Notes under the pieces: generated by a model | Seen by the model: only the letters and a program-made list of their open reading frames with translations | Database searches by the model: none | What the model was told of the DNA's origin: nothing | In this document: piece after piece, positions 1,369 through 63,895 of the stretch | Numbering within the stretch: the stretch's first letter is position 1 | Layout of the letters: every line of letters starts with the position of its first letter | Source of the DNA: Acidimicrobiales bacterium | GTDB lineage: Bacteria; Actinomycetota; Acidimicrobiia; Acidimicrobiales; AC-9 | Direction: 5' to 3' | NCBI GenBank assembly: GCA_036270875.1 | Contig: DATBBR010000074.1 | Span: 1,040 to 65,039, forward strand | DNA: 64,000 nucleotides | Made by a program: the position numbers and the translations under genes

Positions 1369-1448
1369 CGGATATCGGCGTGGAAATGCCTCCGCTGTGC
1401 CCGTCCGTCCGTATAGCCTGTTGCCACCAGAGAAAGGAGGTGGTCCAA

Positions 1449-1493
1449 CTGAACTGTCAAACCGCAGGGACCCTGGAGGTGGCTGGCCGCTAG
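1449..1493 (+). CDS. Putative 14-aa small peptide (L/M)NCQTAGTLEVAGR with CTG start
   Basis: Very strong SD (AGAAAGGAGG 1431-1440) 8 nt before CTG; TAG at 1491-1493; non-canonical start, so speculative. Confidence 0.3.
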   Translation: MNCQTAGTLEVAGR

Positions 1494-1608
1494 GGCGGCC
1501 GCTGGACCACCTGGTGAATCTCAGCCAGACACCGCTCGGCGAGGCGGTCGGGAGCCGGTCCCACCTGATGTCGTAGGTCCTCGTCGGGTCCTTTCCAGCA
1601 GTTTCGTC

Positions 1609-1634
1609 CCGGGGGGCGCTTCGGCGCCCCCCGG
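1609..1634 (+). terminator. Strong stem-loop, probable terminator or 3' stabiliser
   Basis: ccggggggcgc-ttcg-gcgccccccgg: perfect 11-bp stem with a C(UUCG)G loop. Confidence 0.65.
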
Positions 1635-2447: not shown

Positions 2448-3119
2448 TCACCCGTCGTGGCGTCCGACGCCGGCCAGTGCGTCCTCCAGCGCGCCGCGCA
2501 GAGCCCGGGCCCGGCCCTCGGGATCGGCGGCCTCGGTCAGGAAGCGAACGACCACGAAGCGGCGACCGCCAGCCTCCACCATTGGCCCCACCGTCTCCGG
2601 CGAGACGCCGCCGGTGACGAAGAAGGGTAGGCCGGTGCTGGCCGCCACATGGGACACGTACCCCAGCCCGGTGCCGGCCCGCCCCGGCTTGGTCGGTGTG
2701 GGCGTGACGGGCCCGGCCGACAGGTAGTCGACCGGCTCGCGGTCGGCGGCCTCGAGCTGGGCGGGACCGTGCGTCGACAGCCCGACGAGGGCGTCGGGAC
2801 CCATGATCCGTCGGGCGAGGGTGGGCGGGGCGTCCTCCTGGCCCACGTGGACACCGTCGGCTCCGAGCTCGACGGCGAGGTCCGGCCGGTCGTTGAGCAC
2901 GAAGGGAACGTTGTGGTCGCGGCACACCTCGAGGGCGAGGCGGGCGCGCGCCATCAGCGGTCGCGCCTCGAGCGACTTCTCCCGCAGCTGGACGAGGTCG
3001 ACGCCGCCGCGGATGCAGGCGGCCAGGAAGCTGGTGAGGTCTGGGCGATCGGGGCAGCACAGATAGAGGCGGCGTCCGTCGAGGCGTTGGCGCGCCGTTG
3101 CGGTGATGACGCCCGTCAG
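2448..3119 (-). CDS. thiE: Thiamine-phosphate synthase (start uncertain)
   Basis: GGVDLVQLREK, FVLNDRPDLAVELGADGVHVGQED, GLSTH, GPVTPTPTKPG, FFVTGGV; no ATG/GTG/TTG at the domain start, and the CTG at 3119 overlaps the upstream stop. Confidence 0.9.
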   Translation of the reverse strand: MTGVITATARQRLDGRRLYLCCPDRPDLTSFLAACIRGGVDLVQLREKSLEARPLMARARLALEVCRDHNVPFVLNDRPDLAVELGADGVHVGQEDAPPTLARRIMGPDALVGLSTHGPAQLEAADREPVDYLSAGPVTPTPTKPGRAGTGLGYVSHVAASTGLPFFVTGGVSPETVGPMVEAGGRRFVVVRFLTEAADPEGRARALRGALEDALAGVGRHDG

Positions 3120-10280: not shown

Positions 10281-11048
10281 ATGCGCATCGACGGGAGCTC
10301 GGCACTGGTCAGCGGAGGGGCGTCCGGACTCGGTGAGGCGACGGCGCGCGTGCTCGTCGGCAACGGAGCGGCGTGCACGATTGTCGACCGCAACGCCGAG
10401 CGAGGCGAGGCCCTGGCCAAGGAGCTTGGCGGCGCTACCTCGTTCGTGGCTGCCGACGTCACCGACCCGGCGCAGGTCGGAGCCGCCGTCGACCACGCTG
10501 CCCAGTCAGGCCCCCTGCGCATCGCCGTCAACTGCGCCGGCGTCGGCAGTGCGTCGCGACTGGTCGACCGCAGCGGCGCGCCCCACGACCTCGACGCCTT
10601 TCGTTTCGTCGTGAGCGTCAACCTGATCGGTACGTTCAACGTGATGCGCCTCGCCGCCGCGGCGATGGTCAAGACCGACGCCCTCGATGATGACGAGCGA
10701 GGTGTGATCGTGAACACCGCGTCGATCGCCGCCTTCGAAGGCCAGATCGGCCAGATCGCCTACTCGGCCTCCAAGGGAGGGATCGTGGGCATGACCGTTC
10801 CCGCGGCTCGCGATCTGTCGCCATCGGGGATCCGGGTGCTCACGATCGCGCCGGGCGTCATGGACACGCCCCTGCTCGGCCTGCTCCCCGACGAAGGGCG
10901 CCAGGCCCTGGCCGCCGGTGTGCCCTTCCCCAAGCGGCTAGGTACGCCCGACGACTTCGCCGCCCTCGTCGTCCATCTCTGCCAGAACCGGTACCTGAAC
11001 GCCGAGGTCATCCGCCTCGACGGCGGCCTGAGGATGCAGCCCAGATAG
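10281..11048 (+). CDS. SDR, type II 3-hydroxyacyl-CoA dehydrogenase-like (HSD17B10 family)
   Basis: SGGASGLG, VNCAG, RGVIVNTASIAAFEGQIGQIAYSASKGGIVGMT, PFPKRLG, IRLDGGLRMQP. Confidence 0.9.
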   Translation: MRIDGSSALVSGGASGLGEATARVLVGNGAACTIVDRNAERGEALAKELGGATSFVAADVTDPAQVGAAVDHAAQSGPLRIAVNCAGVGSASRLVDRSGAPHDLDAFRFVVSVNLIGTFNVMRLAAAAMVKTDALDDDERGVIVNTASIAAFEGQIGQIAYSASKGGIVGMTVPAARDLSPSGIRVLTIAPGVMDTPLLGLLPDEGRQALAAGVPFPKRLGTPDDFAALVVHLCQNRYLNAEVIRLDGGLRMQPR

Positions 11049-61676: not shown

Positions 61677-62741
61677 GTGAGGGTGCTGATCGTCGTCGAG
61701 CAGCTGCGCCGGAGGGCCCCCGGTGGCATCGGCACGTACGCCCGCGGCCTGCTCCAGGGTCTGGGGCGCATGAACCCCGCTCCCGACATCGCCCTCCTGG
61801 CCAGCCGGCCCGGAGCGGGTGAGGATCCACTGGCCTCGCTCGGGATGCCGGTCCTGGCCTCGTCGCTGCCGGGCCCGCTGCTGACGCGGGCCTGGGACCT
61901 CGGGGTGTTGGGCGCGCCGGACGGCTTCGACGTGCTGCACGCCGTCTCGACCGCCGTCCCCCGGAGCCGGGCGCCGGCGGTGGCGACCGTCCACGACCTG
62001 GCCTGGCGACAGGTGCCCGAGGCGTTCCCCCCGCGGGGCCGGCGCTGGCACGAGGCTGCGCTGCGACGGACCCTGCGACGAGCCCGGCTCCTGCTCGCGC
62101 CCTCACCGGAGACGGCGGCGGCGCTGCAGGACGCCGGGGCGCCCTCCGAGCGGGTGGCGGTGTTCGAGGAAGGCGCTGACCACCTGCCTCCGGCCGATCT
62201 CGACGGCACCCGCGACCTCCTGAGCCGCGTCGGCGTCGACACGCCATACCTTCTGAGCGTGGGCACCAACGAGCCCAGAAAGAACCTCGACCGTCTGTCC
62301 GACGCCTACGACCAGGCCCGGTCCCGCCTGCCTCAGCCCTGGCCGCTGGTGGTCGTCGGGCCCCAGGGATGGGGGGACGCCCTACGCCCTCGCCCCGGTG
62401 TGGTGCTCGCGGGCGAGGTACCGGCGGCCGTCCTCGCCGGCCTCTACGCCCGGTGTCGCTGCCTGGCCTACGTGCCGCTCCACGAGGGCTACGGCCTGCC
62501 CGCCCTCGAGGCGATGGCCGCCGGCGCCCCGGTCGTCGCCAGCCCCATGCCCAGCACCCAGGGCGCGGCCCTCGAGGTTGATCCCCTGAGCGTCGAAGCC
62601 ATCGCCGACGCGCTGGTATGCGCCTCGCTCGACGGCGCCGACCGAGAGCGGCTCGTCGCCGGCGGGCGAAGGCGCGCCGAGAAGCTCACCTGGGAGTCCA
62701 CTGCCCGCCGCCACGTGGCGCTGTGGGAGCAGCTGCGGTGA
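61677..62741 (+). CDS. GT4 (GT-B) glycosyltransferase
   Basis: ATVHDLA, GTNEPRKN, PLHEGYGLPALEAMA. Confidence 0.9.
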   Translation: MRVLIVVEQLRRRAPGGIGTYARGLLQGLGRMNPAPDIALLASRPGAGEDPLASLGMPVLASSLPGPLLTRAWDLGVLGAPDGFDVLHAVSTAVPRSRAPAVATVHDLAWRQVPEAFPPRGRRWHEAALRRTLRRARLLLAPSPETAAALQDAGAPSERVAVFEEGADHLPPADLDGTRDLLSRVGVDTPYLLSVGTNEPRKNLDRLSDAYDQARSRLPQPWPLVVVGPQGWGDALRPRPGVVLAGEVPAAVLAGLYARCRCLAYVPLHEGYGLPALEAMAAGAPVVASPMPSTQGAALEVDPLSVEAIADALVCASLDGADRERLVAGGRRRAEKLTWESTARRHVALWEQLR

Positions 62742-63895
62742 CCGATACCGTGCGGCTCAGCCTCGACGTCAGCGCCGTGCCGGCCGAGCCGGCGGGAGCA
62801 GGCCGGTACACGCTCGGGTTGGCCGCCGCCCTGGCCGATCGACGCGACGTCGAGCTGACGCTGGTATCGAGGTCGGAGGACGCCGAGCGTTGGCGGGACC
62901 TGGCACCGCATGCTGCCGTGGAGGCGGTGGCACCCGCCGCCCGGCCGCTGCGCCTGGCCTGGGAGCAGACCCGGCTGCCGATGCGTTTGCGCCGGCTCCC
63001 CGTCGATGTCCACCACGGCCCCCACTACACGATGCCGGAGGCGTCGTCGATGCCGCGCGTCGTGACCATTCACGACCTGACGTTCTTCGACCATCCCGAG
63101 TGGCATCGTCGCACGCGGGTCCCGTTCTTCCGCCGGGCCATCCGGGTGGCGGCCCGCCACGCCGAGGCGTTGGTGTGCGTGAGCGCCCGCACCGCTGAGC
63201 GCCTGGCGGAGATCAGCCCCCCGTCGGGACCGGTGTTCGTCGTGCCGCATGGCGTCGATCACGAGCGCTTCCGCCCCGACGAGCCCCAGCCTGGTGCCGA
63301 CAGGGCGGCTCTGACCGGCCTTGGGATCACCGGCGCCTACGTGGCCTTCGTCGGAACACTCGAGCCCCGCAAGGACGTGCCGACACTGGTGCGCGCCTTC
63401 GACCGAATGTGCGGGGCCCACCCGGGGCTCAGCCTCGTCCTGGCCGGCGGAGCCGGCTGGGGGGCCGTGGCAGTCGACCGCGCGGTCGCCGAGTCCCGCG
63501 ACCCCGACCGAATCGTGCGCGCCGGCTACGTCGCCGACGCCGACGTCGCCGCCCTGCTGCGGCAGGCAGCCGCCGTCGCCTATCCGTCTCTGGAGGAGGG
63601 CTTCGGGCTTCCGGCGCTGGAGGCGCTGGCATGCGGCGCCCCGCTGGTCACGACCACCGGCTCCGCCATGCAGGAGGTGGTCCAGGGGGCCGCGGTCCTG
63701 GTCACCCCGGGCGACGTGGACGGGCTGGCCGGTGCCCTCGATCTCCTCGTGCGCCGCGACGACGGGTTGCCCACCCGGCGGACGCGGGGGCTGGCCGTGG
63801 CCGCCCGGCACAACTGGGAGGCCAGCGCCGCCGGCCACCTGGACGCCTATCGAGCGGCGATCGCGTCCGGAAAGGGCCCCAGAGAGCCCGACTAG
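62738..63895 (+). CDS. GT4 (GT-B) glycosyltransferase
   Basis: VTIHDLTF, GTLEPRKD, PSLEEGFGLPALEAL; GTGA overlap. Confidence 0.9.
   Translation: MTDTVRLSLDVSAVPAEPAGAGRYTLGLAAALADRRDVELTLVSRSEDAERWRDLAPHAAVEAVAPAARPLRLAWEQTRLPMRLRRLPVDVHHGPHYTMPEASSMPRVVTIHDLTFFDHPEWHRRTRVPFFRRAIRVAARHAEALVCVSARTAERLAEISPPSGPVFVVPHGVDHERFRPDEPQPGADRAALTGLGITGAYVAFVGTLEPRKDVPTLVRAFDRMCGAHPGLSLVLAGGAGWGAVAVDRAVAESRDPDRIVRAGYVADADVAALLRQAAAVAYPSLEEGFGLPALEALACGAPLVTTTGSAMQEVVQGAAVLVTPGDVDGLAGALDLLVRRDDGLPTRRTRGLAVAARHNWEASAAGHLDAYRAAIASGKGPREPD

Follow-up and report, generated by a model that had tools for sequence, protein, structure and literature searches.

What kind of RNA, if any, is encoded between the plus-strand open reading frames (ORFs) 919-1368 and 1677-2444 of an Acidimicrobiales contig (DATBBR010000074.1; the window analysed here is the whole stretch of 64,000 nucleotides (nt))? 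A sequence-only reading of this DNA had proposed a separately transcribed structured RNA or switch with mutually exclusive folds at 1418-1634, and could not assign it to any known family. An Rfam search in E-value mode gave a full-length match to the small RNA (sRNA) family Ms_IGR-5 (RF02471, 'Actinobacteria sRNA') at 1426-1595 (37.5 bits, E 4.2e-07, all 184 model positions covered), and a search for relatives yielded about 100 homologues with compensatory changes in their helices. The comparison gives good support for a predicted stand-alone sRNA encoded at 1426-1634, a divergent Acidimicrobiia-type member of the family. We concluded that the window element adds a sub-threshold member to a known family and is not a new kind of RNA. 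With a maximal ribosome-binding site, a mini reading frame and a refoldable structure, the sRNAs of the Ms_IGR-5 family would act as ribosome-engaged riboregulators, a reading to which we give a probability of about 55%.

Homologues were collected with the pattern AGGAGGTGRTCC-N(15-45)-GAGGTGGC from one genome per GTDB species, which gave at least 120 loci, ~108 of them clearly homologous; the family counts given below (of 102 or 104 sequences, and the rows of alignment A2) refer to distinct sequences among the matches listed by that scan. The nearest relative, L019, also from Acidimicrobiales, scored 48.8 bits on Ms_IGR-5, above the cut-off of 45, and its 5' half is nearly identical to the window copy; through it an unbroken chain of homologues joins the window copy to accepted family members. 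Sampled loci of Mycobacterium scored 172-176 bits, and those of Actinokineospora, Micromonospora, Streptomyces and Kitasatospora 105, 98, 85 and 62 bits, respectively. The conserved blocks of Ms_IGR-5 follow one another in the same order in the window (leader, AAGGAGGUGRUCC, GAGGUGGCUG, stop, AAUCC, CAGUCACC, GUCC loop), and on anchored extraction the window copy stood in register with 87 other sequences without a gap. The window thus shares with Ms_IGR-5 the leader, the AAGGAGGUGGUCC block, GAGGUGGCUG..GCUAG, the (G)AAUCC..CAGUCACC block, the long 3' stem with its GUCC loop, and the character of a stand-alone gene with its own promoter. It differs in that the frame starts with CUG instead of UUG, AUG or GUG and has 14 codons instead of 12, in a short P4 apex that holds a mimic of the anti-Shine-Dalgarno (anti-SD) sequence, in the CCUUUCCAGCA spacer, and in a separate terminal hairpin beyond the 3' stem.

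At the Rfam gathering thresholds there were zero matches across the 64-kb window, and models of 6S RNA, Ms1 and riboswitches were absent from the Rfam matches at E<=10. The likeness to 6S RNA that had been considered earlier did not hold: the element shares with 6S RNA and Ms1 the size class (~180-300 nt), the abundance and the nature of a stand-alone structured actinobacterial RNA, but it is without the long rod and central bubble, in place of which a ribosome-binding site and a reading frame are present, and its predicted and covariation-supported folds are multi-branched. The riboswitch idea was also dropped, as no riboswitch family matched and nothing indicated ligand binding. Ms_IGR-5 of M. 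smegmatis lies in the MSMEG_5794/MSMEG_5795 intergenic region and has been listed as 'validated but uncharacterised'; it is NAD-capped with a +1A start and was seen again under cold stress. Its homologues are sRNA transcription units in S. lividans and S. avermitilis, and ribosome footprints were noted on homologues in M. abscessus and M. smegmatis (PMC4974804). The literature on Ms_IGR-5 and on CC2171, a second sRNA family discussed below, consists of expression and annotation reports in which no function is described; we found no description of the extended ribosome-binding site, the mini frame or the helices on the frame strand in the literature on the family, which treats Ms_IGR-5 as a non-coding sRNA, whereas our analysis reads a mini frame in it. 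ncRv0810c/ncRv10810c proved to be an unrelated leader.

A feature that the sequence-only reading did not see is that 1431-1447 is the complement of the 16S rRNA 3' end. With ...CUGGAUCACCUCCUUUCU-3', which we take to be the 16S rRNA 3'-end consensus, the extended Shine-Dalgarno (SD) sequence AGAAAGGAGGUGGUCCA forms a predicted duplex of 17 bp with one G.U pair and -29.5 kcal/mol, and the complementarity extends to the final nucleotide of 16S rRNA. Several positions relative to AGGAGG that were not forced by the search pattern are conserved among the 104 homologues: position -3 is G in 101, -2 is A in 91, -1 is A in 87, and positions -4 and +12 are each a purine in 87. In the literature the AGAAAGGAGGUGGUCCA string occurs solely as a universal 16S reverse primer. 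The sole other near-match in the window to AAGGAGGTGGTCC, CAGGAGGTGGTCC at 63671-63683, was considered as a second copy of the element and discarded as a chance match within long ORFs (62618-63895, plus strand).

Downstream of this site lies the mini frame, which at family level is conserved beyond chance and, judged from the sequences, under selection. In the window its codons are CUG AAC UGU CAA ACC GCA GGG ACC CUG GAG GUG GCU GGC CGC UAG. With frame 0 defined as the frame of the conserved GAG GUG GC, an ATG, GTG or TTG is found 4-15 nt past AGGAGG in frame 0 in 91 of 102 distinct sequences, in frame 1 in 5 and in frame 2 in 15, and there is no stop before the conserved GAG in 101, 25 and 39 sequences, respectively. 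The stop is placed exactly 5 codons past GAG in 97/102 sequences (TAG 77, TAA 12, TGA 8), and AU-rich loops carry stop triplets out of frame only. Frame length ranges from 11 to 19 codons, with 12 codons in 66 of the 102 sequences with an assignable start. A spaced start, an open frame and a fixed in-frame stop, the marks of a translated ORF, are therefore all present at family level. CUG occupies the conserved start position in the window and in L019, L027, L033, L053, L069, L093, L107 and L108, and in the window clade it lies 8 nt past GGAGG. Frame 0 is stop-free in 9/9 sequences of this CUG clade, and the other frames carry stop triplets in most of them. Initiation at CUG may be routine in this clade, or the frame may be kept and yet rarely translated. 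Likeness among the peptides is limited to codons that form helix strands (e.g., ..[RGW]T.EVA..); the unpaired N-terminal codons vary freely. A second SD-like copy, GGAGGUGG, is located inside the mini frame at 1476-1483 and at the same position in all homologues. It ends 11 nt upstream of the stop and 8 nt upstream of the last sense codon, where the 16S tail of a ribosome in the act of terminating could pair again.

To what extent the frame is also a structural strand was examined on alignment A2, which has 88 gap-free rows built from fixed-length segments cut at sequence anchors, with pairs counted afterwards; anchored segments were used because MAFFT and RNAalifold aligned the 3' half of full-length clade sequences poorly. 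For the whole structure, 81% of cells were paired, against 70% in shuffled alignments and 30-45% with slid partners, and 0/500 shuffles reached the observed value. The helices P1, P3 and P4 and the pseudoknot of Ms_IGR-5 (Table 1) are all possible in the window and show covariation in the family alignment. P1 was paired in 82% of cells, with many double changes at three of its four pairs (e.g., AU 38 / CG 25 / GC 9), and P3 in 94%, with its four outer pairs compensated (e.g., CG 27 / UG 16 / GC 15 / UA 12 / AU 7). In two metagenome sequences (L209 and L158) the P3 strands are replaced by GAGGUGAUUG and CAAUCGCC, a fully compensated variant by which the residues become EVIVT. P4 was paired in 61% of cells in a fixed register, with double changes at 6/7 pairs and a register that varies among sequences. 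For the pseudoknot, the A2 pair 45-117 was CG 61 / UA 7 / UG 1 with none unpaired, pair 46-116 showed six pair types, and pair 42-120 was GC 66 / UA 2; RNAalifold on 11 full-length sequences of the window clade independently arrived at this pairing too, with compensation in two of them. The key pair of P2 was GC 68 / AU 10 / GU 2 / unpaired 7, and its inner pairs were weak. The GGGACC strand 1467-1472 is common to P2 and the pseudoknot and covaries with both partners, P2 GGUCC and the loop GGUCCC 1557-1562, in agreement with the mutually exclusive pairings that had been proposed. On this comparison, the 3' two-thirds of the frame are one strand with four successive partners, namely the pseudoknot (or P2), P1, P3 and P4. 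P1 closes a loop region that contains the ribosome-binding site and start codon, and the stop codon lies inside P4.

Almost every homologue has the AAUCC motif immediately 5' of its ..CAGUCACC strand, with high conservation from phylum to phylum; neither a complementary partner nor a known protein site was found for it. The 3' domain 1535-1588 corresponds to positions 127-178 of the Rfam model. Where it was located in actinobacterial homologues, the P6 hairpin with its RUCC loop stands 19-30 nt past P3, and the loop was located in 69/87 distinct A2 rows. In the pyrimidine-rich strand that follows, CCUUUCCAGCA is conserved in 6/11 sequences of the window clade and UUCCAGCA in 8/11.

Table 1. 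Features of the predicted sRNA element (window positions, 5' to 3').
Feature	Position	Strand	Details
-10 promoter box TAGCCT (TAnnnT type)	1414-1419	+	ends 6 nt 5' of the inferred start A1426
Predicted sRNA transcript, ~209 nt	1426-1634	+	5' end from Rfam model start and conserved A at -9; 3' end from terminal hairpin
P1	1427-1430 (CCAG) / 1473-1476 (CUGG)	+	4 bp in window; pairs leader with frame
Extended SD AGAAAGGAGGUGGUCCA	1431-1447	+	reverse complement TGGACCACCTCCTTTCT; pairs with 16S rRNA 3' tail
P2	1442-1446 (GGUCC) / 1468-1472 (GGACC)	+	5 bp in window; alternative to pseudoknot and to anti-SD mimic helix
Mini reading frame, peptide LNCQTAGTLEVAGR	1449-1493	+	14 codons + stop; CUG start, UAG stop
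Pseudoknot	1467-1472 (GGGACC) / 1557-1562 (GGUCCC, P6 loop)	+	6 bp, duplex -13.2 kcal/mol
P3	1478-1487 (inside frame) / 1524-1533 (GCCAGACACC)	+	9/10 bp in window
P4	1488-1494 (holds stop codon) / 1510-1516	+	7 bp including 2 G.U in window
Anti-SD mimic UGGACCACCU	1503-1512	+	near copy of 16S tail at P4 apex; 10 perfect bp with SD 1438-1447
Internal-loop motif AAUCU (family consensus (G)AAUCC)	1517-1521	+	between 3' strands of P4 and P3
3' domain, stem P5	1535-1544 / 1579-1588	+	10 bp; read from sequence, forms in constrained folds
3' domain, hairpin P6 (inside P5)	1548-1552 / 1564-1568	+	loop 1553-1563 shows GGUCCC 1557-1562
Pyrimidine-rich single strand UCCUUUCCAGCAG	1589-1601	+	CCUUUC pairs with SD GAAAGG 1432-1437; 7 bp in 1432-1438/1589-1595
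Terminal GC-rich hairpin	1609-1634	+	11 bp, UUCG loop; presumed terminator without U tract

Masking of the ribosome-binding site is predicted in the window clade, by the anti-SD mimic at the P4 apex and by a second helix of CCUUUC 1590-1595 with GAAAGG 1432-1437. The masked fold is the minimum-energy fold, at -105.0 kcal/mol vs. -89.5 kcal/mol for the open nested fold of the family consensus. The probability that GGAGG is unpaired, a rough measure, was 0.02 in the window, 0.15 as the clade mean and 0.23-0.58 in other clades; as 3' ends could be placed only approximately, the accessibility values are too noisy for a general statement across clades. The full 8-mer GGA[CU]CACC occurs in 8 homologues of several lineages and matches SD position 8 in 8/8 of them (G-C in six, A-U in two), which argues that the masking helix is under selection. 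The ribosome-binding site thus has a compensated intramolecular partner at 1503-1512, a second instance of the competing pairings that had been suggested.

The transcript most likely begins at A1426, judging by conservation upstream of AGGAGG: position -9, which is A1426 in the window, is A in 81/104 homologues, and a TAnnnT box is placed at a fixed distance (-22 to -20 from AGGAGG) in 75/104 distinct homologues. At the other end, a strong terminal hairpin was found in 10/12 members of the window clade examined, with a weaker one in L072 and the contig ending first in L069; in L093, a low-GC member, UUUUU follows the hairpin. A simple scan of the window for sigma-70 promoters and terminators made no call at the element; the terminator call at 1609-1634 was missed because the U run is missing, and the promoter is of the TAnnnT type. 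The upstream ORF 919-1368 encodes a protein with DUF1707 and 2TM domains, and ORF 1677-2444, which begins 43 nt 3' of the terminal hairpin, an alpha/beta-hydrolase fold. Seven loci of the window clade have the same gene order, DUF1707, RNA, hydrolase and thiE. Elsewhere the surroundings change: ~20 loci of Actinomycetes have ygfZ-like and Fur-family genes upstream and a convergent nitrobindin-like gene downstream, loci of the Streptomyces type have a convergent pdxH downstream, and at least 27 loci have their downstream gene on the opposite strand (19 with nitrobindin, 8 with pdxH). No neighbouring gene was common to all homologues, synteny being kept only inside clades, so that the pattern expected of a riboswitch or leader, one gene class always downstream on the same strand, was not observed. 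We concluded that the element is, on the comparative evidence, an independent gene. The earlier proposal of a separately transcribed RNA is in line with the promoter box, the terminal hairpin, the sRNAs of homologues and the clade-variable neighbours, but the RNA is not simply non-coding, as the mini frame had been overlooked. The thiE gene (TMP-TENI domain, 2448-3100, minus strand) adjoins the hydrolase gene; despite its presence, no thiamine pyrophosphate (TPP) riboswitch or other Rfam family was found at threshold anywhere in the 64-kb window.

The individual pairings listed in the sequence-only reading were found again in the sequence. These are 1418-1423/1596-1601 (6 bp, one G.U), 1432-1438/1589-1595 (7 bp), 1438-1447/1503-1512 (10 perfect bp), the alternative 1438-1443/1561-1566 (6 bp), 1467-1472/1557-1562 (6 bp), 1467-1473/1586-1592 (7 bp), 1480-1486/1521-1527 (7 bp) and the 11-bp UUCG-loop hairpin 1609-1619/1624-1634; the hexamer TAGCCT was likewise present at 1414-1419. 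The '184-nt end-paired core' (1418-1601) built on them is not a real unit: with a start at A1426, the RNA probably does not include the pairing 1418-1423/1596-1601, which overlaps the -10 box. The region folds at -109.3 kcal/mol on the plus strand, modestly better than chance (z = -2.47; 4/200 shuffles equally good), and the minus strand gave z = -2.32. As folding energy alone is weak, the case rests on the ~100 homologues and their covariation.

Homologues with the same ribosome-binding site, in-frame mini frame, P3/P4 with the AAUCC loop and terminator were found in all Actinomycetota classes. Further homologues are located in Acidobacteriota (11 loci), Fibrobacteraceae, Krumholzibacteriia, Eisenbacteria, Sumerlaeota, Leptospira and Syntrophobacter, and two alphaproteobacterial records also carry them; a Blastocatellia copy scored 41 bits on Ms_IGR-5. 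Phage-borne copies were considered and rejected, as all 13 pattern matches in viral contigs lie within ordinary ORFs. Viral contig IMGVR_UViG_3300030231_000427 (L125, ~10440-10560) carries a direct repeat ..GATGTTTGAGGTGGCCTTGAAGGAGGTGGTC.. in a long ORF, a repetitive coding motif unrelated to the sRNA. A metagenome scan for the 19-mer GAAAGGAGGTGATCCAGTG gave at least 120 matches (L134-L253), of which 107 were distinct and had enough flank. Among the matches listed, GAAAGGAGGTGATCCAGTG with GTG heads a frame of <=31 codons in 106/107 distinct cases, and this full-length SD sequence almost never occurs in ordinary genes. The three stop codons are used about equally in these frames; structured sequence comes after them, and a hairpin with a T run follows within 300 nt in 71/107. 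At least four classes can be told apart, VSHC.. (18-29 aa), VSxxKRCHLAGIAR, VSRxxLE.. and ..EV[AVI]xx-stop, which include CC2171-like and Ms_IGR-5-like RNAs.

CC2171 (Rfam RF01867) is a northern-validated Caulobacter sRNA that has been validated in Caulobacter and Methylorubrum. Its consensus starts with cAAcaAucGAAAGGAGGUGAUCCAGUG.. (..GAAAGGAGGUGAUCCAGUG..), the same 16S-tail complement, with the start codon (GUG) directly after it, and the CC2171-like metagenome copies have a frame of 18-29 codons with structured sequence and an intrinsic terminator beyond it. CC2171 differs from the element in its frame sequence (VSHC..) and downstream helices. RF01867 gave weak full-length matches in L044 (4535-4720, minus strand, 40.9 bits), L091 (4103-4280, plus strand, 28.5 bits) and L098 (7535-7718, plus strand, 22.5 bits), and window positions 1424-1503 scored 18.5 bits (E 0.079); all of these are far under the cut-off of 75, and the likeness of the window is confined to the 5' module of SD and start. 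L044 joins a CC2171-like 5' end to an Ms_IGR-5-like ..REVAV-stop end, be it by shared descent or by convergence. The two families are not linked in one Rfam clan, and they may be two names for one wider class. We also entertain, tentatively and with the odds against it, the broader idea that Ms_IGR-5, CC2171 and their relatives in Acidobacteriota, Fibrobacterota, Krumholzibacteriia, Eisenbacteria, Sumerlaeota, Leptospira and Desulfobacterota form one 'mini-mRNA' class of ribosome-engaging RNAs that report on or control ribosome availability. Such RNAs would be marked by a complement of the whole 16S 3' tail and a 12-30-codon frame within a conserved structure, would not be ordinary target-pairing sRNAs, and might, for instance, sense or buffer free 30S subunits or provide new subunits with a test substrate.

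The 16S-tail complement together with the conserved frame suggests that the ribosome may act directly on the RNA. As a ribosome-engaged riboregulator, the sRNA would capture a 30S subunit by its extended ribosome-binding site. Pairing past GGAGGUG would need GGUCC 1442-1446 to be free, which would favour the pseudoknot over P2. Translation of the 14 codons would then have to unzip the pseudoknot or P2, P1, P3 and P4, so that ribosome binding and transit would switch the RNA from a compact to an open fold, and switching would expose or hide the 16S-tail-like 3' elements (CCACC strands, CCUUUCC tail, GUCC loop) and the AAUCC loop. In the window clade the resting state would be 'off', with the ribosome-binding site masked by 1503-1512 and 1590-1595 and a weak CUG start, and ribosome entry would need an alternative fold.

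The reading closest to this one is that the RNA is a ribosome decoy or sponge, which binds the 16S 3' tail of 30S or 70S particles and so occupies or senses free ribosomes; start and stop codons would only let captured ribosomes leave cleanly, and peptide and remodelling would be irrelevant. It overlaps with the riboregulator reading and does not exclude it. The complementarity up to the last 16S nucleotide, its conservation at positions unforced by the search, the stability of the 16S duplex, the footprints on mycobacterial homologues (PMC4974804) and the near-restriction of GAAAGGAGGTGATCCAGTG to very short ORFs among the metagenome matches listed all fit a sponge. A sponge, however, has no need for four covarying helices on the frame strand or for a stop fixed inside P4, a stoichiometric effect on ribosomes would require very high abundance, and in the window clade the site is masked. 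We regard a pure sponge as unlikely, though it is a serious candidate. Rather doubtful, in our view, is an ordinary base-pairing sRNA in which the mini frame is a by-product and the CU-rich tail 1589-1601 or the GUCC loop seeds pairing with ribosome-binding sites of mRNAs. Rfam does list the family as non-coding sRNA, the peptide is not conserved beyond paired codons, the window copy is without a canonical start, and the CCUUUCC tail and C-rich loops resemble the seeds of Gram-positive sRNAs. RNA structure alone predicts neither the start, the frame nor the stop pattern, and the in-frame starts (91 vs. 5 and 15), the stop-free frame 0 (101/102 vs. 25 and 39), the interchange of TAG, TAA and TGA at one position and the out-of-frame stops of AU-rich loops therefore count against base pairing as the sole activity.

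Two further explanations make the frame central in other ways. In attenuator leaders of the trpL type (trpL, rnTrpL), a terminator follows a very short frame, and translation of that frame competes with alternative pairings; the element shares this layout. Leader translation could thus pick hairpins and control the terminator 1609-1634 ahead of the hydrolase gene 1677-2444, which is close by on the same strand and whose surroundings are kept in the 7 window-clade loci. In most other clades, however, the downstream gene differs or is convergent (at least 27 loci) while promoter, frame and fold are still kept; the terminator stem has no role in any alternative pairing that we found, runs of regulatory codons are missing from the frame, no downstream operon is conserved, and homologues accumulate as discrete sRNAs. 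Cis-acting attenuation is for these reasons quite improbable. Least probable of all is that the functional product is the peptide itself, of 12-19 residues, although the frame is maintained and the C-terminus ..T-x-E-V-A-x-x is found again in different phyla. Residues are conserved exactly where their codons form helix strands (pseudoknot, P1 and P3), N-terminal codons vary even within orders, the P3 variants of L209 and L158 alter residues with compensating changes in the RNA, and related classes encode unrelated peptides. Dual-function sRNAs such as SgrS/SgrT, RNAIII/hld, SR1/SR1P and Spot 42/SpfP combine an sRNA-size transcript with a translated small frame, and the element is like them in both respects. 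They differ from it in having a conserved functional peptide, a separate base-pairing region and an ordinary ribosome-binding site, whereas the peptide of the element is conserved only at helix-strand codons and its ribosome-binding site is maximal.

Several points weigh against the riboregulator reading. The regulatory output of the RNA is pure inference. As the peptide is conserved solely at helix-constrained codons, the '..EVAxx' conservation is no proof of a functional peptide, and part of the frame conservation could stem from constraints on the RNA. Alignment A2 leans slightly to the model through its anchor rules, the choice of the best of three registers for P3 and the motif rule for the P6 loop, and its sequences share ancestry. 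With regard to the window copy, its 37.5 bits are below the RF02471 gathering cut-off of 45 bits, and its transcription is read from the promoter box and terminal hairpin only, with discrete transcripts seen in homologues; the terminal hairpin has no U tract. CUG is a start rarely used by bacteria, and nearly all of the window ribosome-binding site is paired in the prediction, so that the window copy, which has no canonical start, may be translated little or not at all; ribosome footprints are known from mycobacterial homologues only.

Taken alone, the window element is an annotation gain, a previously unlisted sub-threshold Acidimicrobiia copy of a known sRNA family. The comparison gives a testable anatomy to Ms_IGR-5, a family known from mycobacteria and streptomycetes since 2013: a ribosome-binding site as strong as is possible, a mini frame that appears to be selected, and a pseudoknotted fold that a translating ribosome would have to dismantle. 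The same design reaches well beyond Actinobacteria and resembles the second orphan family, CC2171, and it is tractable in M. smegmatis, Streptomyces or Caulobacter. Should the ribosome be their direct partner, these RNAs would be relevant to the way in which free ribosomes are sensed or buffered in bacteria.

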